Positions 8,147 to 64,000 of a DNA stretch of 64,000 nucleotides are shown here, piece by piece. Both the position numbers and the translations under genes were made by a program. The stretch comes from a virus, in the IMG/VR virus record IMGVR_UViG_3300022542_000792, positions 4,222 through 68,221 of that record; one strand, given 5' to 3'. Position 1 is the stretch's first letter, and each line of letters starts with the position of its first letter. The notes below the pieces were generated by a model that had not been told where the DNA came from, did no database searches, and saw only the letters and a program-made list of their open reading frames with translations.

Positions 8147-8827
8147 CTAGATATCAAGTTCTTCTACGTACTTTTTCATCATTTCTACATCATTTGGTTG
8201 TTTTCCGAATTTATCCACCCAATAATGAGGACGGATGATAGACTCCATAATAATTCGTTGTTCATCAGAAGTTTGGTGTATTAATAATTCTTTGAACTTG
8301 GGACTGAACAGCAGAATCCAAGGTGATAATCTACGTTCACGAAGTAATGTGATTACTTCATTTGGTTGTAATATGTCAAATATTTCATTTACCTCACATT
8401 CAGCAGCATCCGCTATTTTGAATAATGTATCAATAGTAACCTTGGCTTGACTCAATGGAGATGCACGTCTATCCAAATATTCAAGATATATAGCATACAC
8501 TTGGTCGTTCGTCCATAGTGTAGGAGAAATATCCTTTTCTTTCATTAACGCAACAAATGCATCAACATCAGGAAAGTTTAATTTTTTAACACGTTGTGCA
8601 AAACGATTAAATGATTGGTAATACTTTGACTTTAAAAATGATTGGGAATTCGGAACCATTCGCTTATATGCTTTCATCCACTTCTGGTAGAAAAGCCAAG
8701 CTGCTTGTCCTATAGGCGTACGGAATTCTTCATTACGTTGCATCTGTTTACAGTGATGCTTGAGGTATCTATCCTCTGTAACAAACTTGGCAGAACAGTA
8801 CGAACATTCAAAGTGTTCTTTCTTCAT
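8147..8827 (-). CDS. Hypothetical protein with N-terminal zinc finger
   Basis: FECSYC..F..E..YLKHHC pattern; overlap-coupled to upstream gene. Confidence 0.6.
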   Translation of the reverse strand: MKKEHFECSYCSAKFVTEDRYLKHHCKQMQRNEEFRTPIGQAAWLFYQKWMKAYKRMVPNSQSFLKSKYYQSFNRFAQRVKKLNFPDVDAFVALMKEKDISPTLWTNDQVYAIYLEYLDRRASPLSQAKVTIDTLFKIADAAECEVNEIFDILQPNEVITLLRERRLSPWILLFSPKFKELLIHQTSDEQRIIMESIIRPHYWVDKFGKQPNDVEMMKKYVEELDI

Positions 8828-9297: not shown

Positions 9298-9622
9298 TTG
9301 GTATTCCTAATTTCGTTCCGCAAAACTTACACACAATGTGAGTGTCTTTATATAAAAGGTCATCAAGTGGGTGTATGCATTCTTTAACCATCGTTGCACG
9401 AAGAGCAGTCACATCATCCATAATAGGCATCTTTTGTGCCATCAAATCAAGAATCTGTTCTTCAATAGGACGAATGACGGCAATTAGTTTAACCATGTTA
9501 TCCATTTTACGATTCCAAGATGTCTTCTCACTTCTTGTTGAACTGTTAGCAACAGACTCAAGACGTTGACGTATTAATGTTTCTTCTGGTGTTTCGTTTT
9601 CTGGTCTCTTTCTACGTGCCAT
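9278..9622 (-). CDS. Hypothetical protein, coiled coil plus C-terminal Zn-ribbon
   Basis: CIHP...CKFC; overlap-coupled. Confidence 0.55.
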   Translation of the reverse strand: MARRKRPENETPEETLIRQRLESVANSSTRSEKTSWNRKMDNMVKLIAVIRPIEEQILDLMAQKMPIMDDVTALRATMVKECIHPLDDLLYKDTHIVCKFCGTKLGIPNDTDEA

Positions 9623-9878
9623 TATTATTCTCCATTATACTCATTGCGTTTTCGAATCGTTCTTCTATTGATTTATCACCCACATATGATGCATCAGGTA
9701 TAAGTGTAATTTCTAGTGTTACCTTAGGAGTTTCTCCCATAGGAACACGTATAGAACGCCCATCCATCGTTTGCTCATCTGCATAAGATTTCTCAAATCT
9801 TATATCTGTGCTTGTAATCAACGCATCAAATCCAAAATTTTTAATATATGATTTAAAATCATCTAAAGATGTTATCAT
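9612..9878 (-). CDS. Small protein with C-terminal FENAMS tag
   Basis: 88 aa, TAATG-coupled to upstream gene; ends IEERFENAMSIMENNNGT. Confidence 0.6.
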   Translation of the reverse strand: MITSLDDFKSYIKNFGFDALITSTDIRFEKSYADEQTMDGRSIRVPMGETPKVTLEITLIPDASYVGDKSIEERFENAMSIMENNNGT

Positions 9879-10504
9879 TATTCTATCCCCTTCATTGCTC
9901 GTTCAAAAGCTGTTTTTTGATTCGTATCATGATATACTGACTCAACAAACGACTTTGGTTCGTTAGATGTTGCAGCGAATGTTCCCATTTCTGTTTCTTT
10001 CCAACCACCGTTTCGTATTGCTGCGTTTGTTGTCTGAGTATTCTCCAATCCTGCAAGTTGCTTTTCTGTCTTTTCTGTAGGAATACCCATTGACATTGAT
10101 TTTTCTAATTTTTCCCTAAAGTACCTAATGTCTTCGCCTATATCCAAGGCTTGTCTACTTGGTAATGTTTCGATATGAGAACCTCTGCCTTTTACAGGAT
10201 GTGGGAATGTGAAATCCTCAACTATGGGATGTGGATCATATCCTTTTGTGACTCTTGTGTCTGCATCCAATTGTTTAATTATTTCATCACACGAATATCC
10301 TAAATCTTCTGGAGTCCAACGTTTTGTAATATGTGGAAGTGTGAAGTCTTCAGTAGTTGACTGGTTATCTAATATTTTTGTATTCAAATCATTAACTGCA
10401 CGTAACCTTCTTTTAAGCTCATCAATTTCTTCCAACATTTCAAACCTTTTTGTTCTCAACTCATCGATTTCTTCCTGCATCGTTATTAGATTTTTATTAT
10501 TCAT
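9878..10504 (-). CDS. Protein containing a portal-protein fragment and C-terminal FERAMK tag
   Basis: 44-aa segment with 20/44 ungapped identities to this window's portal; ends TAFERAMKGIE; GGAG SD. Confidence 0.7.
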   Translation of the reverse strand: MNNKNLITMQEEIDELRTKRFEMLEEIDELKRRLRAVNDLNTKILDNQSTTEDFTLPHITKRWTPEDLGYSCDEIIKQLDADTRVTKGYDPHPIVEDFTFPHPVKGRGSHIETLPSRQALDIGEDIRYFREKLEKSMSMGIPTEKTEKQLAGLENTQTTNAAIRNGGWKETEMGTFAATSNEPKSFVESVYHDTNQKTAFERAMKGIE

Positions 10505-11507: not shown

Positions 11508-12659
11508 TTATTCGTTGGGGGTAGGCTGTCTTTCTAGAACTAATTCAGGGGTACGAACACGAGCGGTAACTTGCTTACGACGAAGAAGCTGCTCAATCTG
11601 TTCTTTTTCCATTTTCTCTTGTGGAGTTAATTCATGTTTTTGGTTCATAGATGATAACATGGATTGTAGCTGCTCAATGCTGCTTGCCAATGGGTTATCA
11701 GTATCTTTTTCTTCAACATTATAATCAAGAAGGTCATCAACTGTTGTTACTGTTGGTTCGGGTTCTTCTGTTTTTTCAATATCTCCATCAGGCAACTCTG
11801 TTACTAAAGAACCTCTACCATCTTCGGGATGTGGATTATCAGGATATTCGTCTTGGTGTGTTTGATGAACATAATCTTCAGCACTAACTTCAACATAATC
11901 ATTTACGCGTTTGTGTACTTTGTATGTGCCATTATCCTTTTGTCGTTGAACAATAGCGATGTTTGAACCAATTGTTAAAATAACGGCAAGCGGGTCAAAG
12001 ACAAATATGATAAGAAAAATCATCCATTTTGTCGCATCGTCAACATCACTACCAAATGCTTTAGCAATAAAGATGATTGGTCCAGTATGCGCTTCTTGTT
12101 GGATTACCGCATTCTTTATTTTGTGTTGTTCAGTTGTTGTAGTTTGAAGCTCACGTGCATATCGTTTAAGGTCAATATCAATTTGAGCACGTTCTGCATT
12201 TTGTGACTCACGCATTTTTCTTCTGTTCGTGCTATGGTTACCAGGAATAGAATCAATTTGAGCATCAAGGCGAGCACGTTGATTAATTCGTTCTTGCTTT
12301 AAATCTCCAATTTCTTTTTTGCGTTCATCAAACAATGCAATCTTTGACTGCATCTCTTTTAATGGAAGTGTGTCTTGTTGATACGCAGCAGAAAGGTAAC
12401 CAAATATACCAGCCGATGTTATTACCATTAAAATAAGGATGGCTGAAATCAAGTATGATTTCATTAAGAATGAAATTGTTGACCAGTATCTATATACGTA
12501 TGAAGCTGAAATAAGTTTTCCAGCTTCTAGTGATGTCGCCATTACTACAACAGGCCAAAAGGAACCTGAAAATATATTTGCTAATCCATAGATACTAAAA
12601 AATGCTGCAGAGCCAGCAATTGAAAGTGTAACGAGGATGAGTGTAACGATAAATCCCAT
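11508..12659 (-). CDS. Membrane protein with coiled coil
   Basis: Three N-terminal hydrophobic helices, coiled coil, further TM (IFLIIFVFDPLAV), acidic tail; late motif upstream. Confidence 0.65.
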   Translation of the reverse strand: MGFIVTLILVTLSIAGSAAFFSIYGLANIFSGSFWPVVVMATSLEAGKLISASYVYRYWSTISFLMKSYLISAILILMVITSAGIFGYLSAAYQQDTLPLKEMQSKIALFDERKKEIGDLKQERINQRARLDAQIDSIPGNHSTNRRKMRESQNAERAQIDIDLKRYARELQTTTTEQHKIKNAVIQQEAHTGPIIFIAKAFGSDVDDATKWMIFLIIFVFDPLAVILTIGSNIAIVQRQKDNGTYKVHKRVNDYVEVSAEDYVHQTHQDEYPDNPHPEDGRGSLVTELPDGDIEKTEEPEPTVTTVDDLLDYNVEEKDTDNPLASSIEQLQSMLSSMNQKHELTPQEKMEKEQIEQLLRRKQVTARVRTPELVLERQPTPNE

Positions 12660-39280: not shown

Positions 39281-40543
39281 TTATAATTGTGGGGAACTTT
39301 CATAAAAGTCATCACTATATCCTGTGGTAGTATTTGGATCATTAGAATCATCACTAGCGTAACGAAGGGGCCAATTACCACCTTTTGTAAGTTCACTAAG
39401 ATTAACTTGTCCGATACTTGGATTGGTAGGTTCATTTGGTTCAATGTATAATCCATCGTAACTAAATTGCAACCCAATTTCATTACCTTCCCCAGATTCA
39501 GCCATACTCAATTCATCCATTTGTAATTCTAAAATTTTAGGATTGAAGAAGTGGTAACTGTTCATCAACCGACCACCATCAAAAACATGAAACAATGTAA
39601 TTTCTCGTAACACTGTTTTTTGATTTTCAAGAAGAGGACCTGCAGATGCTGAATAATTGTGTGTTGGAGTTCCAAGTGCAGCGTGTTGGTTTAATTGATC
39701 AAAATTCATACCACCACCATCAAATTGTTCAATCTGTTCTCTTGTCATATTTGAAATAGGACTCATTGCTCTAAGATAAGAATTATAAAAATGCATAGCT
39801 TCATTCGTCAGATCGTCATAGAATCGCATACCGATAGGATTATAAGTTGACTTTTTGATAACCTTTGTCTTGAAGTTGTATAAATTAATATCATCATATT
39901 CAAATTGAATTGTTGGACGATCTGACTGTTTGATTACAAACGCAAAATGTTTGAATCGATCTGACATTGCTACATATGGTTCACTAAATGTAAATTGGAC
40001 AACGAATAAGAATTTACTTTTTGGTGCCCGAGCAATCAAATCCATTGCATATGGAGATGCGTGACATACTTTAAAATCTGGGGCTTTATTTGCATCTGGG
40101 GATGTAAATAATTTATCTGTAAATGTTTTTAAATTTGATAAATCTGCTACAGCATCAGGAAGGTCAGAAATATCATTATAATTACCACCTTTAACTTTTT
40201 CCCAAACTTGTTTAGCAGAACTAATTCCTCTATTAACTACACCTGGATTTAAAGAGGCGTTTGTACGAGCGGCAGATGGATTAATTCCCGTCTCTCCCAA
40301 AACAAAATCGGCACCAAGATCATCAGAACTTCCTAGTGGTAGTGGACCATTTCCACCCAATCCAATAATGTTGGATGTACTAACTAATGCACGAAGACCA
40401 TCACCAACTGATCCAGTTCCTTCAATCCCACCAAGAAAACTTGCACCTTCAAAAAATGACTTCTTTGATGATGTGTTTTGTATGTGTGAATTGATATCTG
40501 CTGAACAATTTTTGACTAAGAATTTTCTTGGATCTACCGCCAC
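39281..40543 (-). CDS. Tail-tube-like baseplate/tube initiator protein
   Basis: C-terminal half has gp19-like pattern (DRPTIQF..YN..Y.PI.MRFYDD..FSYD); adjacent to tube gene. Confidence 0.6.
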   Translation of the reverse strand: MAVDPRKFLVKNCSADINSHIQNTSSKKSFFEGASFLGGIEGTGSVGDGLRALVSTSNIIGLGGNGPLPLGSSDDLGADFVLGETGINPSAARTNASLNPGVVNRGISSAKQVWEKVKGGNYNDISDLPDAVADLSNLKTFTDKLFTSPDANKAPDFKVCHASPYAMDLIARAPKSKFLFVVQFTFSEPYVAMSDRFKHFAFVIKQSDRPTIQFEYDDINLYNFKTKVIKKSTYNPIGMRFYDDLTNEAMHFYNSYLRAMSPISNMTREQIEQFDGGGMNFDQLNQHAALGTPTHNYSASAGPLLENQKTVLREITLFHVFDGGRLMNSYHFFNPKILELQMDELSMAESGEGNEIGLQFSYDGLYIEPNEPTNPSIGQVNLSELTKGGNWPLRYASDDSNDPNTTTGYSDDFYESSPQL

Positions 40544-40679: not shown

Positions 40680-41264
40680 TCACGCGCCTGCGCCACCTGT
40701 AGCAACACCTTCACCTTGAGCATATCCACCAATATCTTGGCGAGCATGGTCATAACGAATTGTTGCAATAATCTGAACCGCTTCACTTGCTGCGAAATCC
40801 AAATCTGTATAATCAACATTCTGAATCCAGCAACCTTCCATTGTCCATTTTTCAACGACTTGCTCATTACCATCAAGAAGGTCAAGATATGTAACGAACT
40901 TGTAAAGTCCACCCTCACCTGCAGATGCTAACCACTGTCCTTCAGCGCCAATCAAATATTGTTGCTTCTGAAGTTGTGCTTGAACTACTGCAGAAGCAGT
41001 ACCTGTAACATCATCTTCAAGAGTTAATGTGACAGGCTCAAAGTTGTGTTTGCCAGCAATCCAAGCTCTTGAATTATAACGGTCAAGTTGAACTTCTTCA
41101 AAATTCAACGATGGACGTGTAATTGTAATTGCCTGCATTGATACTGGTTGTGAATCTGCACCACCTCCCAAGTTAGCGAATGTTACACGCCATTTGTTCT
41201 TGAGCTTTGGCTGCAAGATTCCTGAGCCAACGCCTGGGATTCCGATGTCATTAATAGTTGCCAT
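40680..41264 (-). CDS. Tail tube protein (gp19-like)
   Basis: RPSLNFEEV..AGKH.FEPVTLTLEDD..W.MEGCW..YTDLD..TIRYD; follows sheath. Confidence 0.85.
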   Translation of the reverse strand: MATINDIGIPGVGSGILQPKLKNKWRVTFANLGGGADSQPVSMQAITITRPSLNFEEVQLDRYNSRAWIAGKHNFEPVTLTLEDDVTGTASAVVQAQLQKQQYLIGAEGQWLASAGEGGLYKFVTYLDLLDGNEQVVEKWTMEGCWIQNVDYTDLDFAASEAVQIIATIRYDHARQDIGGYAQGEGVATGGAGA

Positions 41265-41320: not shown

Positions 41321-43432
41321 TTAAATCTCAGCGCCTGATGCAACAACGCGTATTGGTACGTAGATAAATTCAGCTGCTTTGACTGGCTTAATAGCCACAT
41401 CAATATACATTTCGTTTCTGTCTATACGGTCAGGTGTGTTATTTGATTCATCACAAACTGTTGCGAAATCATATAAACCACGTTTAACCACTATGTCTCC
41501 CAAGAATCCATCAACGACAGCTTTAAGATTGTCACGGGTTAATTGGTCATTTGGTTCGAATACGAATGCAAGTGTATTTTTACGCAATTGACGCTTAATG
41601 TACATTACAAGACGTGAAACATTTACACGGTCAAGAGCACTTGCGTCAGATGCTGATGTCTTCTGTCCCCAGATAAGAATACCACGACCAGGGAAGAATG
41701 CAATCGGATTAACGTTTGTGAAGTATTTGTATAAATCATCACGTTGACCTTGATTAACATGCAATGCATTAAATGTTGTTGCAGTTCCAAGTTCACCTGA
41801 AACATAACCAACATCAGTAAGACCAGTAACAAGACCACGACGTGTTCCTGCTGGTGCAAACCATAATTGACTTACTTCATCACTAAATGCATATGTGCGA
41901 AGTGCTGTTCCACTTGCTGCAATGAATACATTCTTTCCATCAATATTTGATGCAAGTCCATGAGGATAGTAATAAGCAACATTTGTAGATGATTGACGAG
42001 CTGGTGTTCCAGCCCATGCAACTACTTCAGATGCTGTCATATCCATTGGCGTATCTGCGATAACAAATGCTTCACCACTAATATCAGCAGAAAGTGCTAA
42101 CATTTCATCAACTACTTCATGATATCCAGGGCAAAGAATTAAATTAAATTCAAAGTTTTCAGAACGTACTTCTGTATTAGCATTCATTGTTCCTTGAAGT
42201 GCTGTAACTATTGCTGCACGACGTGCAGTATCATTAGCACCAAGGCTTGTAAGATTTCTAAACTCAGCAGTAAACTTAAAGTTGTCTGCTGCATTAGTAA
42301 GAGATGTTGTAGCTTCTGCAGGAGACCATTCTGTAGGGGTTGGACTTCCACTACCACCAGCAACCCAAGCTGCTACATCACCTTCAAAACCAAGATATGT
42401 ACCAGTAGCTGCTTGTGAATAACCATTTCCATAAACTGGAAGAGCAACATCAATTGTAACACCGTTAACTGGAAGTGAAAATGAAACAAAACCATTTAAG
42501 TTTGCGAATAATGCTGTAGCTCCTGATCCGTCTGTAATACTGATTGTTGAAGCAGCACCTTCTAATGTACTTGTAATTACAATATTATCAGCTTGTGGAG
42601 AGCCACCTGGAGTTAAAGATGCAACTGCACCTGTAAGGTCAGTGTTTATTGCTGCCAATAAAGCTGTCCAAGTTGTTGCATCTGATCCAGAGAAGGAAAT
42701 ATTATTTACCGTACCATCAACTGTAACCGTAGCTGTATAAGTAGTACCACCAACAAGGCCAGGATCAGCACCAACATCAGTAATGCTGTTACCCATATCA
42801 ACGACTTGGATACCACTTGTGCTTGCAGCAGGAATACCATTATCATCAAAGAAGTCTGTTTCAAGACCTGAGAAAGTTGCTAAGTCCCAAATATCTGTTG
42901 TTGCATCATTAGCAAGAGAAACTATCTCTGCTGCTGTTACTGTTGTTCTGAAACCAGGATCGGTTGTAACAAAACCATTTGTATTATTGTATTCGTCAAG
43001 TAATGCTTGTGCAAGAATTGCAATAGTTGTTCCTGCAGTAACAATTTTGGAATCCCATCGGGTACGTAATGTTACAGTGTCATCATCAAGATTGACATTT
43101 GCACGGACTACATAAGCTCTATTACCTAAACCAAGGAATTGGTTTAATCCAAATAGGCCGTATTCATTTCTTGCATCACCGTGTTGAGCATTTCCACTAG
43201 AATCTTCAAGGAAGCTTGGAACACCATATAATTCAAGACTCTGTTTCAGAGACGTTACTGTGCGAACAACATCGTGTTCATATGTGCCAGCAGCAGGTGT
43301 AGTTCCATCAATTTGAACTTTTTCATCAGCTGTTGCAACAAAAATTAGAGGGACAGTGGATGCGGCCGCTGGGATGAAGAAACTTTCATCTGTTACCGTT
43401 ACACTTACACCTGGACTTACTAATGTAGCCAT
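41321..43432 (-). CDS. Contractile tail sheath protein (gp18-like)
   Basis: LVSPGVSV, WFAPAGTRRG, WGQKT, DRVNVSRL, FEPND and PVKAAEFIY motifs. Confidence 0.95.
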   Translation of the reverse strand: MATLVSPGVSVTVTDESFFIPAAASTVPLIFVATADEKVQIDGTTPAAGTYEHDVVRTVTSLKQSLELYGVPSFLEDSSGNAQHGDARNEYGLFGLNQFLGLGNRAYVVRANVNLDDDTVTLRTRWDSKIVTAGTTIAILAQALLDEYNNTNGFVTTDPGFRTTVTAAEIVSLANDATTDIWDLATFSGLETDFFDDNGIPAASTSGIQVVDMGNSITDVGADPGLVGGTTYTATVTVDGTVNNISFSGSDATTWTALLAAINTDLTGAVASLTPGGSPQADNIVITSTLEGAASTISITDGSGATALFANLNGFVSFSLPVNGVTIDVALPVYGNGYSQAATGTYLGFEGDVAAWVAGGSGSPTPTEWSPAEATTSLTNAADNFKFTAEFRNLTSLGANDTARRAAIVTALQGTMNANTEVRSENFEFNLILCPGYHEVVDEMLALSADISGEAFVIADTPMDMTASEVVAWAGTPARQSSTNVAYYYPHGLASNIDGKNVFIAASGTALRTYAFSDEVSQLWFAPAGTRRGLVTGLTDVGYVSGELGTATTFNALHVNQGQRDDLYKYFTNVNPIAFFPGRGILIWGQKTSASDASALDRVNVSRLVMYIKRQLRKNTLAFVFEPNDQLTRDNLKAVVDGFLGDIVVKRGLYDFATVCDESNNTPDRIDRNEMYIDVAIKPVKAAEFIYVPIRVVASGAEI

Positions 43433-43501: not shown

Positions 43502-44266
43502 TTATGGTAAATTTATGTCATCTAAACTGAACCAGTTCTCATAATCTATCCCTTGCTCATTGAGTTCATCAATCATTTCCTGATTTGTCAATGAGTCCTG
43601 ACTGACTGCTCCAACGCGGACATATATGTCTTTGATGTAGTCATCTCGGAGATTTGCTGGTGCCGAGATATACACAGGAAAGTTGAATGATAATGTAGAA
43701 ATTATCATTCTTCGGTCAGTTCCAGTAGGATAACTCTGGTCAAAATTGATTCCATCCAATTCAACTGTTGTTAATTTTGTCCAGTCAAAAATACCATCAC
43801 TGGTTTGAATTTGCACCGTTGGGTCAAAAATCATTAATATTTGTTCTAAAATTTGAAAGTGTTGGTCAGAGTTACTTGCATAAATTGCCACTTCTGCTTG
43901 CATCCTATATGGAATTGGCATATACTGATGAACTGTTTTGATACCATCAGGAAATACTTCACCTCTTGGTAAGTATGATTGACGACGAGTTTGGCCTATC
44001 CCTTTTCTTAATTCAGGAGCAAGTTGAAAATTGTTTAAATATGCACTCAGCATAGGCAGACGCAATGGTTTATTTTGCGTGTTATCACCAATGATATGCG
44101 CTACAACTCTGTCCTTATTCCCATACTGGATAGGTACCGTTATTAACTGTTCTTCATCAGAATCAGCGTTTTTTCCAATGCTTGCTTGCAGTCCAGCAAA
44201 GATAGCCATAAATTGTGTTAGGTGTTTTTTGCACTGTTGGTTGTAATAAAAGTTTGCAATTGCCAT
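43502..44266 (-). CDS. Tail terminator/sheath stabiliser (gp15-like)
   Basis: FYNQQ..QF..IF, VPIQYG, PIPY..QILEQIL..F.P pattern; between neck and sheath. Confidence 0.8.
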   Translation of the reverse strand: MAIANFYYNQQCKKHLTQFMAIFAGLQASIGKNADSDEEQLITVPIQYGNKDRVVAHIIGDNTQNKPLRLPMLSAYLNNFQLAPELRKGIGQTRRQSYLPRGEVFPDGIKTVHQYMPIPYRMQAEVAIYASNSDQHFQILEQILMIFDPTVQIQTSDGIFDWTKLTTVELDGINFDQSYPTGTDRRMIISTLSFNFPVYISAPANLRDDYIKDIYVRVGAVSQDSLTNQEMIDELNEQGIDYENWFSLDDINLP

Positions 44267-51601: not shown

Positions 51602-53008
51602 TTATGCAAAGTCAAGAGCAGATACAGCTATCTTACCGTAGTAATCAGCACTGTTTCCAAGTGATGTAGTTGCGCTAGTGAATGAAGTCTTGCCGTAGCG
51701 AGTCATCAAACTAACAACAGGTTGGAATGTAACTGGGTTAACAACCACACCTGAACTCATCAATGGAATATATGGGCAGTAGAAGTAACCAGTATCAGTT
51801 TCTCCGTTTCCACCTTTATAACCAATAAGGATTGTATCATTGTTACTTGCTTGAGTAGTACCAAGATCAAGACCAGCACCTGCTTGATTCCACAAGTATG
51901 AATAAACCTTGATTGAACCATTAAGAGTACCAACTAACATTGTATTGTTAGGACCTTTGAAAGAACCTTCAACAGCTGGAGCAAATACTGACTTGCTTGC
52001 AGACTGAAGAACAGAAACAATCATTGGTGAAACAACGATGAAGTTACCAACACCACGACGAGTCTTACGACCAATCTCGTTAGCAACACGGTTAATAATT
52101 ACTGAGATGTTAGCAAGACGATCACCTACGTATGCAGGAGCGTATGTACCAGCAACACCACCACCGTAACCACCACCTGAAGCACCATCAAATGTATCAG
52201 TTGTACCAGCAAGAGCGATAAGATCGCTAATGATTTCAGCGTCAATTTCTTGAACGATTTCAGCAGAAAGCGCTTGAGTCATTTCTGATTCAATATCAAG
52301 TCCGTGTTGTGAATTCATATCTTGCATAGCTTCGATAGTCCAACCAGCTTGAAGTTTACGTGAACCAGCTTCAACAGCTTGGCTTACAACTTCAAGTCCC
52401 ATTTTACGACCACCAGAACCTTCAAGGTAACTACCAGAACCACCATAAGAACGGTTAGCAGTAGTTGCAGTGATGTCAAGGCTTGAAGGCCATGCTTCAC
52501 CAGTAGTTTCTGAACCATCGATCGCAGTTGTTCCGATACCAATACCACCAGCACCAGCTACTTGAGCATCAGCTCCAGCAGGTAATGGAGAACCAGAACC
52601 AGCACCAGCACCACCAGAATAGAAAGCACGAAGAGCAGGGCTGTTGCCAAACGCTTCATTACCAGCTGTGATGCTTTGTGCACCGAATGCATCATTAGTT
52701 GTATCAGTTACTGATTCTTTGTAAGTGTAACGCAAAGAATAAACAAGTCCAACAGGACCAGTCATTGGTTGTACACCAACTAATTCACTTGCAATTGTAC
52801 CAGGAATGATACGACGAATCATTGGGATTAAGATTTTACGGAATCCAGCAATGTCGTGTGCAACAGTTGCGCCAGAAGCGGCTGTTTCCATCATCATTTG
52901 GTTTTTTTGGTTTTCAAGAAGAGGTGCGACAATCTTACGTTTGTCAGCGGCTAATCCTTCAAGTAACGCTTCTTTGGTCTCTGACCAATTTTCGAACATT
53001 TCGTCCAT
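51602..53008 (-). CDS. Major capsid protein (T4 gp23-like)
   Basis: LENQ, GVQPMTGPVG, SRKLQAGWT.E..QD..HGLD, EIDAEI and YCPYIPL..TFQP..MTRYG motifs. Confidence 0.95.
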   Translation of the reverse strand: MDEMFENWSETKEALLEGLAADKRKIVAPLLENQKNQMMMETAASGATVAHDIAGFRKILIPMIRRIIPGTIASELVGVQPMTGPVGLVYSLRYTYKESVTDTTNDAFGAQSITAGNEAFGNSPALRAFYSGGAGAGSGSPLPAGADAQVAGAGGIGIGTTAIDGSETTGEAWPSSLDITATTANRSYGGSGSYLEGSGGRKMGLEVVSQAVEAGSRKLQAGWTIEAMQDMNSQHGLDIESEMTQALSAEIVQEIDAEIISDLIALAGTTDTFDGASGGGYGGGVAGTYAPAYVGDRLANISVIINRVANEIGRKTRRGVGNFIVVSPMIVSVLQSASKSVFAPAVEGSFKGPNNTMLVGTLNGSIKVYSYLWNQAGAGLDLGTTQASNNDTILIGYKGGNGETDTGYFYCPYIPLMSSGVVVNPVTFQPVVSLMTRYGKTSFTSATTSLGNSADYYGKIAVSALDFA

Positions 53009-55347: not shown

Positions 55348-56946
55348 TTAAAGTTCTCCACCAAGTTCTCCACCACCAAGTTCTCCACCAAGTTCTCCAC
55401 CAGCAGTCATCTCTCCTCCACCCATCTCTCCACCCATCTCTGCAGCAGCGGCTGCAGCTTCAGGTTGGTACAGTGCTAGAAGATCTTTTTCATTACCATC
55501 TGGATCAAGTCCTTTCTCTTCACGAAGTTTACGTTCATTATCAATAATTTCATCATCAGTAAGTTGTAAATAACGTTCAAGAATGAAACGTTTAGAAAGA
55601 TATGGAATACCATCAGCACTACCATATGCAGATAATAATGCAGCATCTACTTCTTGTTGTCGGTATGTACCAAAGTTAGTAGGTTCTGGTAAACGAATTC
55701 TATAAAGAGTTTCATCAATGCGGATGTTAGTTTTTTGGAGATATTTTTTAAATTCCGTATCAAGGATATTTTCAATGTGTCCTTGAAGTCGCATTACATA
55801 TAATGCAAATTTGAATTCTTCAATATATGCGACACCTACTTTACCGTCATTGAATACTGCACCTTCTGCTCCTTTTTTCATATAAGAAACAGGAACACGT
55901 AAGCCTCTCCAAACTTTATCTTGGAAGTATTCTAAGTCAGCAAGTTCACCAAGACCTTGTCCACCAGGTAATGTTTCTACACGAGAACCTCGACCATCTG
56001 CACGTTGGGCAAAAAAGAAATCTTCTGACATTGATTGAGGATTATATACTGATTCAACTTCACTTTTTCCACCAGATTGGGTAGGAATTTTTTTCTGTTT
56101 GATTTCGTTCTTGATTTGTTCAAGATATGTTTTAACACGTTGAGGAGGCATCTTACCAACATCAATATAGAATACTCGACGTTCAGGAGCACGTTGTACA
56201 CGATAGATAAGGATAGCATCTTCTAATAATTCTTTTTGTTTGTGAGCACGGAATACTGGACGAAGAACAGATTCTCCAAATGGAGCTGTATCAGATAAGT
56301 CATCGTTTAAAGTAAACCGAACAATTTCATCTGCAGAAATAATTTCTGTTTCAGTTTCTTGTGTCCCTGTAACAGGAGCACCATATGAAGATTTAGCTTT
56401 TGTTATACTCTTTTTTACTTGCCACCCAATGATATTTGTCACATCATCTTCTTCAACGATGGCACCAATTATATTTTTAGGATGTAAAAATGCCCAACGT
56501 TTAAAATGGTCTTCTTGTTTACGAAAGAAACAATCACCATATTTGGCTGTTGTGCGTGAAACTTTGAACAGACGATTTTCCCAATCATGAGATTTGCACC
56601 AATGATGCATTGCAGCCCGAAGAGTAAGGACAATGTTACTTGGTAATTTTTCTTCATCTTCAGCAAGAATATCAAGTTCCAGTGGCATATCTGTCTTTGG
56701 ATTATTACCTGTCATTTCTTCAGCTATTGTATCAAGTGCACGAGATACTTCAACATCATTATCCATTAAATCATATTCACGGTAACGAGTTAAACGTGAA
56801 GCTGACCCTTGAACTAGTCGAGAGTACCAAGTGTAGTTACCATATGTCCCTTGATCACCAAGAGACTGGCTATCAGAAATCTTGGTAGTTTCAGGCTTCG
56901 GTGTTACGATTTTAAAATAGTTGGTCCACTTTGGATTCTGGGTCAT
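55348..56946 (-). CDS. Portal protein (T4 gp20-like)
   Basis: LLEDAILIYRVQRAPERRVFYIDVG.MP and EDFF..ETLPGGQ..YF motifs. Confidence 0.95.
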   Translation of the reverse strand: MTQNPKWTNYFKIVTPKPETTKISDSQSLGDQGTYGNYTWYSRLVQGSASRLTRYREYDLMDNDVEVSRALDTIAEEMTGNNPKTDMPLELDILAEDEEKLPSNIVLTLRAAMHHWCKSHDWENRLFKVSRTTAKYGDCFFRKQEDHFKRWAFLHPKNIIGAIVEEDDVTNIIGWQVKKSITKAKSSYGAPVTGTQETETEIISADEIVRFTLNDDLSDTAPFGESVLRPVFRAHKQKELLEDAILIYRVQRAPERRVFYIDVGKMPPQRVKTYLEQIKNEIKQKKIPTQSGGKSEVESVYNPQSMSEDFFFAQRADGRGSRVETLPGGQGLGELADLEYFQDKVWRGLRVPVSYMKKGAEGAVFNDGKVGVAYIEEFKFALYVMRLQGHIENILDTEFKKYLQKTNIRIDETLYRIRLPEPTNFGTYRQQEVDAALLSAYGSADGIPYLSKRFILERYLQLTDDEIIDNERKLREEKGLDPDGNEKDLLALYQPEAAAAAAEMGGEMGGGEMTAGGELGGELGGGELGGEL

Positions 56947-62405: not shown

Positions 62406-62630
62406 TTATATGTTAGATTTTATATCTTCGCTTCTGATAATATCATTTGGATATCTGGAATTATGTTCGCTTCTATATTGTTCTATTCTATCTAAAATTC
62501 GTTTCTGTTCTTTATTATCTAATTCTGTTCGATGTATACTTAAAAATGTATTCAATTTTGACCAATGGCAATATCCCTGTTTTTCAGCAAATAGTTTATC
62601 TATCTGAGCGCTTAAGCCCATACCATCCAC
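62406..62630 (-). CDS. Small hypothetical protein
   Basis: 74-aa ORF; start uncertain. Confidence 0.4.
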   Translation of the reverse strand: MDGMGLSAQIDKLFAEKQGYCHWSKLNTFLSIHRTELDNKEQKRILDRIEQYRSEHNSRYPNDIIRSEDIKSNI

Positions 62631-62662
62631 TTTCTGTGTAATGTCATATTGTTCACTAAATG

Positions 62663-63202
62663 TTATTTACTCTTTTTCCTGGCTTTTTTCTTTTTCTTTG
62701 GTTTATCAAAGCCTTCCGACTTAAATTCTGGATTGCTGACTGTCTTTGCAATATAATATGCATCAGTCAAATCAAGCATTCCAGTTGATTTCTTCAACCC
62801 CATTTCTTCCAATAAAGTTTTTATTTTTTGGGGTAATAGTTCATACATCTCCATTTTATCAGCTTTACCACTACCAGTCGCTACCTTCTTCACGGTTCTT
62901 GGTGAAACTACTATACATTCTTTATTATGCAATTCTCGTAGAATACAAACTATAACAAACTGTAACCCTGCTAAATCCCTAGTAGCATCACCACGCATAC
63001 CAAATGCTAGTCCTTCTAATGCTACAATATCTGGCTTGTGTAACTCAACAAGTTTTCCAATATGCTGTGCAATATCCCAAGCTCTCGCTGGCTTATCCTT
63101 CGTAGCATCCGATACAAACTTCTCAGCGTGTATTACATTGTCTTCTTCTAGTATTATTAAACCACTACAAGTATACGATTGATCAATTCCAAAAATTTTC
63201 AT
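62663..63202 (-). CDS. ruvC: RuvC-like Holliday junction resolvase
   Basis: GIDQS, VALEG, VKKVATGSGKADK.EM and D.TDAY.IA motifs. Confidence 0.88.
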   Translation of the reverse strand: MKIFGIDQSYTCSGLIILEEDNVIHAEKFVSDATKDKPARAWDIAQHIGKLVELHKPDIVALEGLAFGMRGDATRDLAGLQFVIVCILRELHNKECIVVSPRTVKKVATGSGKADKMEMYELLPQKIKTLLEEMGLKKSTGMLDLTDAYYIAKTVSNPEFKSEGFDKPKKKKKARKKSK

Positions 63203-63229
63203 AAATATCCTCTTTCAGATATTTATTCG

Positions 63230-63619
63230 CTAATCTTGGGAGATTCCCTTCATTGCTCTTTCGAATGCTGTTTGTAAATCAGATTCATTGGCGTTAATCG
63301 AAATAGGGATATATACGAACTCAGCTGATTTGTTAGGTTTAATTGTTACATCAATTGAAGTTTCTCCATATCCAACCGATACAGCAAAGTTGTCAATAGC
63401 ACCCCTATCCTTCATATTATCTAGGAATGATTGTGTATACATTTCAACTGAATTTGCTATGCAAGCTCTTGTTGCCTCATCATTTATTTCGAATTTGTAT
63501 TCATCCAACACTGTTTCGATTTGTTGTTTAAGATACACCATAGTTCGTTGTATGTCTACCTTATCCCATGGTGATTGTAATCTTTGATCTGCACCAACAT
63601 CTAAATTATAACTAGACAT
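63230..63619 (-). CDS. Stand-alone tail-sheath C-terminal-domain paralog with FERAMK tag
   Basis: Aligns to C-terminus of sheath 41321..43432; ends TAFERAMKGISQD. Confidence 0.75.
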   Translation of the reverse strand: MSSYNLDVGADQRLQSPWDKVDIQRTMVYLKQQIETVLDEYKFEINDEATRACIANSVEMYTQSFLDNMKDRGAIDNFAVSVGYGETSIDVTIKPNKSAEFVYIPISINANESDLQTAFERAMKGISQD

Positions 63620-63960
63620 TATTGATCCTCCACTATTTTCATTGCTCTTTCGAATGCTGCAATGTCATTTGAATTTCTGCCTTCTTTGACAGGAACCCAA
63701 GCTTCCATCGTCATCCACCCAGTATCATCCATTCTCATTCTACGACAAACAAATTCAGCACATAATTGTTTACTAGTCTCAAAAGTGTTTGGGTCAATGT
63801 AATCAATTAGCTTTTCTGAATTTGGTGTTCTTTTTATAGAATACCAACCATGTTGTTCACCATTAGCTTTCATTAATTTGCCTGTAACTAAATCAGCATT
63901 GTCATCACCTTCAATAAAAAATGGCTGTCCTTCATATTTGTCTCTTTCAATGATTTTCAT
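63619..63960 (-). CDS. Small protein with FERAMK tag (weak similarity to capsid C-terminus)
   Basis: TAATG-coupled on both sides; ends AAFERAMKIVEDQ. Confidence 0.65.
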   Translation of the reverse strand: MKIIERDKYEGQPFFIEGDDNADLVTGKLMKANGEQHGWYSIKRTPNSEKLIDYIDPNTFETSKQLCAEFVCRRMRMDDTGWMTMEAWVPVKEGRNSNDIAAFERAMKIVEDQ

Positions 63961-64000
63961 TATTCTATTGTCTTCATTGCATTTTCGAATTTGCTAACTA
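63960..64000 (-). CDS. 3' end of a gene ending in the FENAMK tag (truncated by window end)
   Basis: Manual translation ..VSKFENAMKTIE*, TAATG-coupled to next gene. Confidence 0.65.
   Translation of the reverse strand, partial: VSKFENAMKTIE

Follow-up and report, generated by a model that had tools for sequence, protein, structure and literature searches.

Why should a phage that encodes a full-length tail sheath carry, at a distance from it, a second and much smaller gene for the inner domain of that sheath, and why should this copy end in a short motif which other small genes of the same DNA also carry? The question arises from the window, i.e. the whole stretch of 64,000 nucleotides of an IMG/VR virus record, and from an earlier note on it, which had read the small gene as a free-standing sheath C-terminal domain with an appended tag and had proposed a sheath mimic acting as decoy, assembly cap or dominant-negative against other contractile systems. 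The features concerned are the following:

41321..43432, minus strand: real tail sheath of the phage (703 aa), to which the stand-alone domain corresponds at residues 598-703.
62663..63202, minus strand: RuvC-like resolvase, adjoining the 129-aa gene downstream.
63230..63619, minus strand: stand-alone sheath-C gene, 129 aa with an ATG start; inner sheath domain plus C-terminal tag.
63284..63574, minus strand: sheath-C domain proper, residues 16-112 of the 129-aa protein.
63248..63268, minus strand: AFERAMK codons, residues 118-124 of the 129-aa protein.
63619..63960, minus strand: 113-aa ORF of no known family, ending in ...AAFERAMKIVEDQ and translationally coupled to the 129-aa gene.
63960..64000, minus strand: 3' part of a further ORF truncated at the contig end, with ...KFENAMKTIE as its last residues and a stop that shares bases with the ATG at 63960.

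The location given in the earlier note, about 20 kb from the tail operon and upstream of ruvC, agrees with our measurements: the end of the sheath gene is 19.8 kb away, and the product of the next gene downstream is RuvC-like according to both Pfam (E 3.6e-7) and PHROG 159 (E 3.8e-31). With roughly 20% of the genome in hand, the 129-aa gene is flanked by this RuvC gene and by small ORFs, and its ATG shares bases with the stop of the ORF upstream (TAATG). The tagged genes are situated among replication and recombination genes. Matches to the late-promoter sequence TATAAATA do precede structural genes; none is found in the region 59.3-64 kb, and none in the region 8.1-25.4 kb. From this absence of promoter matches, we infer that the tagged genes probably belong to an expression class other than late.

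The 129-aa protein is a stand-alone copy of the inner domain of a T4-type tail sheath. Its BLASTP alignment with the phage's own sheath spans 110 aa at 29% identity and scores 53.1 bits (E 2e-13), whereas the top score among 200 shuffled versions of the protein is 21.9 bits. The Phage_sheath_1C domain (Pfam: PF17482) is predicted for residues 16-108 with 31.3 bits (gathering cut-off 26.9; E 2.2e-7), the C-terminal end of the tail sheath family PHROG 10581 matches the ORF with E 2e-12, and, in a search of the PDB, a profile of the stand-alone family aligns to residues 547-646 of T4 gp18 (E 4e-20). The two local identities on which the earlier note had relied, 13 of 36 and 13 of 18 residues, are reproduced in alignments that start at ORF residues 16 and 89 and at sheath residues 598 and 677. 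Likewise, the loop described as deleted appears as a 10-residue gap in the ORF facing the sheath stretch ...CDESNNTPDRIDRNE...; a 4-residue insertion relative to the sheath lies earlier than this gap. The tag follows where the sheath ends, as was claimed, in that 14 residues (QTAFERAMKGISQD) extend beyond the last aligned point of the sheath.

Compared with a working sheath, the copy lacks four features. The N-terminal linker motif (..SPGV.V.V.D.S..), found at residues 6-17 of the real sheath, is absent, and the ORF begins just 15 residues ahead of the domain, i.e. without the outer domains. Missing, too, is the segment NPI...G.G..V.GQKT, which is conserved across 26 aligned sheaths, and where the sheath has its C-terminal linker, the copy has a helix, predicted for residues 112-127, that bears AFERAMK. 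The term sheath mimic used in the earlier note is supported: the protein consists of the sheath C-terminal domain alone with neither linker arm present. The loop CDExNNxPxxIDxNE is nearly invariant in sheaths and present in the 10 more distant tagged relatives; it is missing from the lineage of the window protein, which is gapped here, and the loop-less copy may no longer make sheath-lattice contacts. The AlphaFold2 model of the protein (pLDDT 71) consists of two helices and a three-stranded sheet, with the tag forming part of the helix 112-127 at a pLDDT of about 60. In a Foldseek search with this model, sheath chains rank first; the best of them has an E-value of 4.7e-3, and none reaches 1e-3.

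The tag itself is not confined to the sheath copy. AFERAMK, reported in the earlier note as an appended FERAMK tag, stands at the C-terminus of three ORFs of the contig, those at 63230, 63619 and 9878, and weaker forms are found at the end of the ORF at 9612-9878 (RFENAMSIME...) and of the truncated ORF at the contig end, where the last residues before the stop read ...KFENAMKTIE. Four complete ORFs and one cut ORF are therefore tag carriers, and their codons differ synonymously; the three AFERAM copies are separated by synonymous differences only (GCA/GCT, TTC/TTT, AGA/CGA). A matrix built from 20 foreign tags gives the C-terminal ends of the four complete ORFs 30.1, 29.6, 29.6 and 14.1 bits, while none of 39,133 internal positions of the contig ORFs reaches 12 bits. 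The tag of the 129-aa ORF, with 29.6 bits, also fits the pattern [FY]-[ED]-x-[AS]-M, which is required to lie no more than 10 residues from the stop.

In all 13 members of the stand-alone family (the window protein and 12 foreign proteins), the residues A-M of the tag are invariant, and an environmental contig encodes AFERAMKVV using four other codons. To judge from the sequences, the tag is a protein-level feature. Two observations at the DNA level have to be set beside this: an exact repeat of 20 bases joins the two adjacent tag-coding ends, and the tags are located at TAATG gene junctions, so that what is conserved beyond A-M may in part reflect the ribosome-binding site of the next gene. 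The tag-bearing tails have no match in Pfam, PHROGs or NCBIfam. A scan of IMG/VR DNA for possible AFERAMK coding returned 86 matches, four of them within 12 codons of a stop; as this is the level expected by chance, the scan adds no tagged genes. Two readings of the motif were dropped on its sequence pattern. A clamp-binding (PIP-like) tag would call for an aromatic pair, which is absent, and for a conserved Q, which varies; for a prohead-protease site (x-x-E), the E varies (E, D or N) whereas A-M is invariant.

Near the other end of the window, the tag is joined to a piece of a different virion protein. The corresponding features are:

9878..10504, minus strand: 208-aa ORF with a coiled-coil N-terminal part, a copy of the conserved middle piece of the portal, and the tag ...TAFERAMKGIE.
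9612..9878, minus strand: 88-aa ORF with a weaker tag (RFENAMSIMENNNGT), coupled to the 208-aa ORF by TAATG.
55348..56946, minus strand: real portal of the phage, 532 aa; residues 289-360 are the counterpart of the piece in the 208-aa ORF.

The 208-aa ORF and the phage's own portal share 33% identity over 72 aa (E 5e-8), and Portal_T4 of Pfam is predicted for the ORF with 33.1 bits (cut-off 22.9). A phmmer search of the PDB with the ORF yields nothing at E<=1; the piece was placed via the own portal, whose residues 289-364 lie inside the stretch aligning to T4-type gp20, in what we take to be the stem/clip region. At least four small, co-oriented and translationally coupled genes, or five with the cut ORF, carry the C-terminal motif. 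The bodies of the 129-aa (sheath) and 208-aa (portal) modules copy pieces of virion proteins, and the bodies of the 113-aa and 88-aa modules match nothing: for the 113-aa ORF, there is no Pfam or PHROG family, no match to phages better than E 0.2 and no usable Atlas lead, and no family was matched for the 88-aa ORF, PADLOC and NCBIfam included. PADLOC and NCBIfam likewise returned no family for the 129-, 208-, 113- and 92-aa queries and two of the mosaic proteins described below.

Full-length relatives of the 129-aa protein exist at 83% and 62% identity and others at 31-46%; the wider family comprises the 12 foreign stand-alone proteins. Relatives are encoded on long contigs, P0005 on one of 136.8 kb, P0155 on 128 kb, P0156 on 190 kb and P0003 on 40.6 kb. 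Both proteins related to the portal-piece ORF, at 44% and 38% identity, retain FERAMK. Among the three relatives of the 113-aa ORF, one keeps the tag, one is without it and one is truncated. Four mosaic proteins of 420-530 aa come from uncultured relatives. Each possesses a sheath-C domain, three of the four add a short capsid-like bit and the portal piece, and all four, which come from separate sources, end in a tag of the same kind. In P0012, P0077 and P0018, Phage_sheath_1C (E 1e-13 to 7e-10) is found together with Portal_T4 (E 5e-19 to 4e-15), and the C-terminal end reads KFDD[SA]ME... The model of P0012 is too poor for reading contacts of the tag (pLDDT 47, pTM 0.28). When a profile of the mosaics is run against the contig, it has exactly four matches, i.e. 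the sheath, the 129-aa ORF, the portal and the 208-aa ORF. The window phage carries a split version of the mosaic, with a tag of its own on each piece.

The distribution of these forms is narrow. Neither the stand-alone nor the fused form is present in any of five cultured relatives, which build the same kind of tail. In 50,697 phage records, neither form was found: a search for the stand-alone form led to 116 places in 116 records, and the best 40 of these 116 are all at the sheath gene or at an unnamed ORF in sheath position; for the fused form, none of 2221 matching records covers at least 80% of the mosaic. Loci related to the three closest proteins were found neither in IMG/VR nor in metagenome contigs. 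For the portal-piece family, IMG/VR contains no locus and the metagenome contigs contain one, which is an ordinary portal gene and has no tagged ORFs (L100). The clusters of the family are tiny, and in the phylogenetic tree 104 true sheaths cluster together, while all tagged, fused and other short forms fall outside on long branches. Other stand-alone sheath-C proteins possess Tat-like signal peptides or zinc-finger N-terminal parts; the latter, with CxxCxGxG in some of the short relatives, are presumably DnaJ-type zinc fingers. Variants of the 129-aa gene were compared in four DNA runs on short contig pieces. In its 5' part, among the 40 of 120 differences listed, synonymous changes outnumber non-synonymous ones by 3 to 1 in run X3 and by 4 to 2 in run X4.

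How far do these data favor a role in building the phage's own tail? A domain that can only accept in the linker handshake could bind the free linkers of sheath monomers, or the terminator (43502-44266), and would then prevent polysheath or help to start or end polymerization, in the role of chaperone, initiator or cap. That the domain is a sheath C-domain is well founded. Furthermore, a predicted co-fold of the 129-aa protein with the own sheath scores 0.55 (0.55, 0.54 and 0.56 in the single runs) against 0.00 for the best of three controls, the runs sharing at least 70% of contacts at a partner pLDDT of at least 62. Among 80 solved complexes, 58 reach the mark, as against 2 among 110 mismatched pairs; with a score of 0.60 or less, it is reached by just 7 of the 80 complexes and by both of these mismatches. 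The verdict of this co-folding check, a kind of test suggested in the earlier note, is weak support, both for an assembly role and for the mimicry reading given below. Since sheath lattices are already solved and our own alignments were used, the pass may come from likeness. The zinc-finger part of some short relatives suggests chaperone-like uses, and the model bears a weak fold likeness to T4 gp25, the sheath initiator (5iw9_B at rank 13, E 0.089, TM 0.28/0.29; 5iv5_BD at rank 23, TM 0.37/0.38). According to PMC5813253, gp25 and TssE adopt the same fold as the inner domain of the sheath, and the proposal is made there that they accept the linkers of the first sheath ring. Yet the gene is missing from five of five cultured relatives with the same kind of tail, it lies 19.8 kb off the tail genes amid recombination genes with no late-promoter match nearby, a tagged portal piece and sheath-portal fusions would be superfluous for a sheath chaperone, the CDExNN...IDxNE loop is lost, and the branches are long and outside the true-sheath cluster. 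We consider such an assembly factor unlikely. Another idea is that the protein is a gp25-like or other stoichiometric component of baseplate or neck which merely looks displaced. The same fold resemblance could be quoted for it, and with about 20% of the genome in hand the baseplate genes are not seen. Its sequence family, however, is the sheath C-domain itself; at E<=1, Pfam shows no GPW_gp25, and no gp25 chain is among the PDB matches of the family profile, so that the gp25-like identity held out in the earlier note as a counter-explanation comes down to weak fold resemblance. As the gene is, moreover, missing in the five cultured relatives and its tag partners include a portal piece, this identity is very improbable.

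The tag could, on the other hand, be a packaging address that loads the mimic modules into the head for injection with the DNA. A single short C-terminal helix is common to unrelated small proteins, is kept across relatives and occurs once per polypeptide in fused and split forms alike, all of which would suit an address. But the tag resembles no known targeting peptide, the genes lie outside the head module, and the tag-bearing tails are without match in Pfam, PHROGs and NCBIfam; we regard this explanation as quite improbable. A decaying, functionless duplicate, finally, would require that the tag is a by-product of gene conversion between neighboring 3' ends or of the ribosome-binding sites of coupled genes. 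The exact 20-base repeat between adjacent tag-coding ends, the position of the tags at TAATG junctions and the truncation of the 113-aa gene in one relative are what this explanation has to offer. It is scarcely credible in view of the synonymous-only differences between the tag copies, the fused proteins from four separate sources that end in the tag, and the excess of synonymous over non-synonymous changes in both runs among the differences listed. The pseudogene named in the earlier note as a possible objection is also at odds with an intact reading frame, full-length relatives not only at 83% and 62% but down to 31-46% identity, and A-M residues that do not vary in 12 foreign proteins.

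The evidence points to an undescribed set of virion-protein mimics. The set of mimic modules is rare and fast-evolving, and the 129-aa gene is very probably not a sheath-only device, a member of the gp25 family or a pseudogene. Taken as a whole, our preferred reading is that this gene is one module of a set that works by competitive mimicry, to which we attach slightly less than an even chance. The protein would present the surface on which, in a sheath inner domain, the linkers of neighboring subunits normally dock, a role that has been proposed for gp25/TssE; since the mimic cannot donate linkers, it could occupy a partner but not extend the lattice. The shared tail helix would tie all modules to one common partner or fate. 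The joint occurrence of sheath, portal and capsid pieces, the replication and recombination setting and the patchy, fast evolution argue for an accessory arms-race device and not for a part of the virion.

As to the target, our best guess is that the mimicry serves as an immune decoy or as assembly interference. That the protein, alone or through the tag, decoys or blocks host sensors which recognize conserved virion proteins is possible at clearly less than an even chance, and the case for a decoy is circumstantial. PMC13581612 describes Avs families as sensors of the portal and of the major capsid protein; it mentions the tail sheath as no more than a possible further target and depicts the sensors as wrapping whole folds. 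Short pieces may not satisfy sensors of this kind. Furthermore, a single cytoplasmic decoy role does not explain the forms with Tat-like signal peptides and zinc fingers. That the target is the sheath itself, either for assembly control or for the poisoning of a rival T4-like phage, seems fairly unlikely. The aim at other contractile systems (tailocins, T6SS) put forward in the earlier note has lost ground, because the same tag is found on a T4-type portal piece, other phages possess sheath-portal fusions, and tailocins and T6SS are not known to possess a portal. A broader proposal would be that some uncultured T4-like jumbo phages encode an early-region mimicry kit made of the most conserved pieces of their own sheath, portal and capsid proteins, fused or split, with the same address helix on each polypeptide; such a kit might blind host immunity that senses conserved virion folds, or interfere with virion assembly in rival T4-like phages, while the tag would couple the modules to one partner. 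We put this forward as a tentative picture that leans towards the unlikely.

If the mimic reading is true, the best-conserved virion proteins of a phage serve that phage as templates for copied fragments with a common address, a principle that was not found in the literature searched. It would provide a handle on how phages escape from sensors of folds that they cannot change, and on whether the sheath is sensed at all. Should the sheath be the target instead, nature would have supplied an acceptor-only inhibitor or regulator of sheath polymerization, which would be useful for studies of contractile machines. In both cases, the tag defines a family that can be searched for, and the sheath-portal mosaics represent an unexpected domain architecture.

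Among known systems, the nearest in sequence is the inner domain of T4 gp18 (Pfam: PF17482), with which the 129-aa protein forms one sequence family and, in its model, shares the helix-helix-sheet layout, sheaths being at the top of the fold search; it differs in that it stands alone, without N-terminal linker, NPI...GQKT segment or outer domains, carries a helical tag in place of the C-terminal linker and has lost 10 loop residues. Short address peptides are known from the internal proteins of T4, which carry a capsid-targeting sequence, and from encapsulins, whose cargo-loading peptides act in a similar way. These have in common with our tag that a short terminal motif is placed on otherwise unrelated small proteins; there is no likeness in sequence, and the AFERAMK motif is C-terminal and helical. 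gp25 and TssE (GPW_gp25), as described in PMC5813253, are small, free-standing proteins that have the inner-domain fold and can accept linkers but not donate them, and the 129-aa protein, with its weak fold matches to gp25, may be of a similar kind; the 129-aa gene, in contrast, has no sequence relation to them, lies outside a baseplate cluster, shares its tag with non-sheath modules and is absent from cultured relatives. Phage anti-defence mimics, e.g. DNA mimics, and the Avs sensors offer a parallel of a different kind, namely the copying of a conserved, sensed surface. The accessible part of a catalogue of anti-defence systems (10.1101/2025.06.06.658234) makes no mention of a decoy built from a phage's own structural pieces. 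The mosaics copy from three sources, and two of these, the portal and the major capsid protein, are known Avs targets according to PMC13581612.

The minus-strand ORF at 63230-63619 encodes a protein of 129 aa that consists of a stand-alone tail-sheath C-terminal domain and ends in the tag, a C-terminal motif (AFERAMK, with weaker forms) common to several small ORFs of the window phage.

63230-63619, minus strand: 129-aa sheath-C protein, tagged; ORF with Pfam, PHROG and BLASTP support
63619-63960, minus strand: 113-aa neighbour, tagged
9878-10504, minus strand: 208-aa copy of a portal piece, tagged
9612-9878, minus strand: 88-aa ORF with a weaker tag form

Residues 16-108 of the 129-aa protein match Pfam Phage_sheath_1C with 31.3 bits (gathering score 26.9), and the protein matches the C-end of the 'tail sheath' family PHROG 10581 (E 2e-12). 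Aligned with the 703-aa sheath of the same phage (41321-43432), it is 29% identical over 110 aa, at sheath residues 598-703 (53.1 bits, E 2e-13), the best of 200 shuffles reaching 21.9 bits. A 10-residue gap faces the sheath stretch CDESNNTPDRIDRNE, and past the point where the sheath ends the protein continues for 14 residues, QTAFERAMKGISQD. The sheath gene lies 19.8 kb away, and a RuvC-like gene is directly downstream. The earlier note had described a free-standing copy of the domain with a deleted loop and an appended tag, about 20 kb from the tail operon and upstream of ruvC; this observation holds in every point, and its alignment counts (13/36 and 13/18) are exact on recount. In an AlphaFold2 model (pLDDT 71), two helices and a three-stranded sheet are followed by a C-terminal helix (112-127) with the tag; Foldseek ranks sheath chains at the top (best E 4.7e-3).

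Within the near-length range, a word-based search of 5.8 billion proteins retrieved no more than two relatives; they have 83% and 62% identity, are roughly full-length and both carry AFERAM. An exhaustive HMMER search of 1.84 billion representatives yielded 174 proteins at E<=1e-3; the 152 listed and classed comprise 92 long proteins, 20 C-terminal fragments of sheath genes and otherwise short proteins. Ten more short proteins (110-142 aa) can be aligned end to end with the 129-aa protein, tag included. A 13-member alignment shows no variation at the A and M of the tag (consensus EAFERAMK), and the loop CDExNNxPxxIDxNEL is kept in the ten more distant members and lost in the window clade. In 50,697 phage records, tblastn found 116 places in 116 records, the best 40 of which coincide without exception with the C-end of a sheath gene or with that of an unnamed ORF so positioned; in five out of five cultured relatives, the stand-alone-family profile matches the sheath only, and no stand-alone copy was found. 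A tree of 148 domain sequences, built on 103 columns and of low resolution, unites 104 true sheaths with that of the phage itself in one cluster (SH-aLRT 82), groups the window protein with its two close relatives (support 95), and places all tagged, fused and other short forms outside the sheath cluster on long branches. Hence, the stand-alone copy did not arise by recent duplication of the resident sheath but belongs to an older family that is fast-evolving and patchy.

Other short metagenomic proteins carry the sheath C-domain behind different N-terminal parts. Eight of them (P0035, P0069, P0087, P0106, P0141, P0142, P0143 and P0148) have a twin-arginine-like signal (RRxF[LI]K plus a hydrophobic stretch), which suggests that sheath-domain proteins of phage or cell origin may be exported. 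In P0074, P0107, P0121 and P0122, the domain is preceded by two CxxCxGxG zinc-finger motifs, which we take to be of the DnaJ type. The ending ...FRMD of P0016 and P0101 may be a further form of the tail motif.

The 20-base string encoding the tag occurs in two exact copies (63251 and 63640) and in one with three mismatches (9893), the expected number being 0.01. All three encode AFERAM at 4-6 residues from the stop, and the mismatches are purely synonymous (GCA/GCT, TTC/TTT, AGA/CGA). Weaker forms end the 88-aa ORF (RFENAMSIMENNNGT) and an ORF cut by the contig end (...KFENAMKTIE*). With a position matrix trained only on 20 tags of foreign proteins, four C-ends among the 409 contig ORFs scored 30.1, 29.6, 29.6 and 14.1 bits, the next-best C-end 7.9, and none of the 39,133 internal positions reached 12 bits. 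The tag is a genuine feature, selected at the protein level. The tagged genes have the same orientation and are translationally coupled: TAATG (stop/start overlap) marks three junctions from a tagged gene to its downstream gene (63617-63621, 63958-63962, 9876-9880), and between the 88-aa ORF and the gene after it the overlap is 11 bases. Conservation downstream in the tag may therefore partly serve the ribosome-binding site of the next gene, which counts against the decoy reading given below. An exact repeat of 20 bases or more is common to the tag-coding ends of the two neighbouring genes (63250-63270 and 63639-63659), hinting at gene conversion between them; the copy at 9893-9912 differs from it by three synonymous changes.

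For the 113-aa ORF, no match was found in Pfam, PHROG or the phage records. Out of three relatives, one (52% identity) keeps AFERAMGVV, one has no tag and one is truncated. The truncated relative and the 83% relative of the 129-aa protein are both on contigs of 40,622 bases, a common size which suggests that the linkage of the two genes is conserved. Four DNA runs yielded contigs over parts of 62600-64000, and 40 of 120 differences are listed. Among these, the 5' part of the 129-aa gene has 3 synonymous and 1 non-synonymous codon changes in run X3 and 4 and 2 in run X4; the 113-aa gene has 12 and 13 in X4, with FERAMK unchanged. A loose end from X4 spells AFERAMKVV with four different codons. 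This partial list is consistent with selection on the tag.

Over 72 aa, the tagged 208-aa ORF shares 33% identity with portal residues 289-360 of the same phage (E 5e-8), and it matches Pfam Portal_T4 at profile positions 245-307 (33.1 vs 22.9 bits); its two relatives (44% and 38% identity) both end in FERAMKVVE. Four of the HMMER matches, P0012, P0077, P0018 and P0009 (423-530 aa; from JGI, Logan and ENA, every one a singleton cluster), are mosaics: an N-terminal region, a coiled coil and Phage_sheath_1C (E 1e-13 to 4e-11) precede a tagged end, whose last stretch reads [KQA]FDD[SA]M[EG]... Three of the four include a Portal_T4 piece (E 5e-19 to 4e-15). Between the sheath and portal pieces, P0018 and P0077 have a short stretch like residues 406-434 of the window phage's major head protein, with weak matches (43% over 28 aa, E 0.014; 57% over 14 aa, E 0.28). 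P0124 has an extra copy of the sheath N-terminal linker motif (83% over 18 aa, E 6.5e-4), and P0086 (337 aa) comprises an N-region, the sheath-C domain and the end AFARAMKGI. The mosaic pieces are 41-52% identical to the window phage's real sheath and 56-61% to its portal, versus 29-33% for the window's stand-alone copies. A profile of the four mosaics matches the contig in exactly four places, i.e. the sheath, the 129-aa ORF, the portal and the 208-aa ORF; the window phage thus carries a split mosaic with the tag repeated on each piece. In five out of five cultured relatives, this profile matches sheath and portal only, with no mosaic, and none of 2221 phage records matching P0012 covers at least 80% of it.

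According to PHROG matches, the phage is a T4-like myovirus; the window contains structural genes (sheath, tube, portal, major head protein, prohead protease, terminase) and replication and recombination genes (UvsX, UvsY, gp32-like, clamp-loader, helicase). The source contig from IMG/VR has 68,221 bases (window, 4222-68221) and an estimated completeness of about 20%. Its major head protein shares 58-68% identity with those of the jumbo phages XacN1, Xoo-sp13, CM1, RAS14 and RsoM2USA. The gene (51602-53008, minus strand) matches the closest cultured relatives in two pieces covering about 83% of the query, pointing to an insertion or an interruption within one lineage. At its C-end (55348-55450, minus strand), the portal terminates in the low-complexity run AAAAAAEMGGEMGGGEMTAGGELGGELGGGELGGEL. 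Two genes are tube-like:

39281-40543, minus strand: tube-like gene
40680-41264, minus strand: tube-like gene

The 194-aa product of one is a tube protein (PHROG 4542, E 7e-50); in the 420-aa product of the other, residues 172-370 also match that family (E 9e-13). A 226-aa ORF (8147-8827, minus strand; PHROG 11058) adjoins the small clamp-loader subunit, and from its size and position we would guess a putative sliding clamp. Just upstream of the clamp-loader gene, a predicted 383-aa membrane protein (11508-12659, minus strand), with no family match in PHROG, PADLOC or NCBIfam, has a short stretch, HPEDGRGSLVTELPDG, resembling the GRGSxVETLPGG core of the portal piece; this core is present in the portal, the 208-aa ORF and the mosaics.

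How might such proteins act? According to PMC5813253, sheath subunits are joined by N- and C-terminal linkers onto the inner-domain sheet of subunits in the baseplate-nearer ring, and TssE and gp25, of the same fold as the sheath inner domain, are proposed acceptors of first-ring linkers. The 129-aa protein has retained the inner-domain core and lacks both linkers; it could thus occupy a partner of that face without extending the lattice. The earlier note had proposed a sheath mimic. The co-fold with the full sheath, based on our own alignments, scored 0.55 (runs 0.55, 0.54, 0.56; contacts agreeing at least 70%, partner pLDDT at least 62), and the best of three controls 0.00. Among solved complexes, 58 of 80 reach the mark, against 2 of 110 mismatched pairs, and scores at the mark up to 0.60 include only 7 of the 80 complexes and both passing mismatches. 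The pass, which likeness to solved sheath lattices may explain, weakly supports predicted binding to the phage's own sheath.

The tagged genes are located among replication and recombination genes. Ten matches to the T4-type late-promoter pattern TATAAATA, mostly just upstream of structural genes, are not above chance (6.3 expected):

3024, 8068, 25467, 28603, 33758, 41295, 51136, 59231, 59264, on the strand of the genes that follow: TATAAATA, just upstream of structural or neighbouring genes

No match occurs in 59.3-64 kb or 8.1-25.4 kb of the window, a pattern that may bear on the expression timing of the tagged genes. The portal and capsid-like link argues for a set directed at something that handles conserved virion proteins of the T4 type in general. 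According to PMC13581612, bacterial Avs sensors recognise portal and major capsid protein, the tail sheath being mentioned just as a possible additional target. Based on this link, the gene location, the promoter pattern and the Avs targets, we tentatively rank first that the 129-aa protein and its kin act as an immune decoy or blocker. Against such a decoy, the window copy is missing the loop retained by sheaths; one cytoplasmic decoy role leaves the Tat-like or zinc-finger N-parts of other short sheath-C proteins unexplained; and the tagged modules and two of the mosaics have no match in PADLOC or NCBIfam. In the accessible part of the anti-defence catalogue preprint 10.1101/2025.06.06.658234, no decoy made from structural-protein pieces was seen.

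A sheath-directed regulator or poison, both taken jointly, is a less probable second reading, and a packaging address encoded by the tag would be improbable. Still less probable is a gp25-like virion part, the identity against which the earlier note had set its own view: T4 gp25 is matched weakly by Foldseek (ranks 13 and 23), and among solved structures the family profile finds no gp25 chain at E<=1 and sheaths instead (T4 gp18 residues 547-646, E 4e-20, plus others). That the gene is junk is hardly credible, given the synonymous tag mismatches. In the accessible literature, supplementary tables aside, neither a stand-alone sheath C-domain bearing a shared tag nor a sheath-portal mosaic protein was found described. 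The sheath C-domain itself is already known; the architecture and the gene set appear undescribed, and if the tagged genes do form a mimicry kit, the set could represent a new category.
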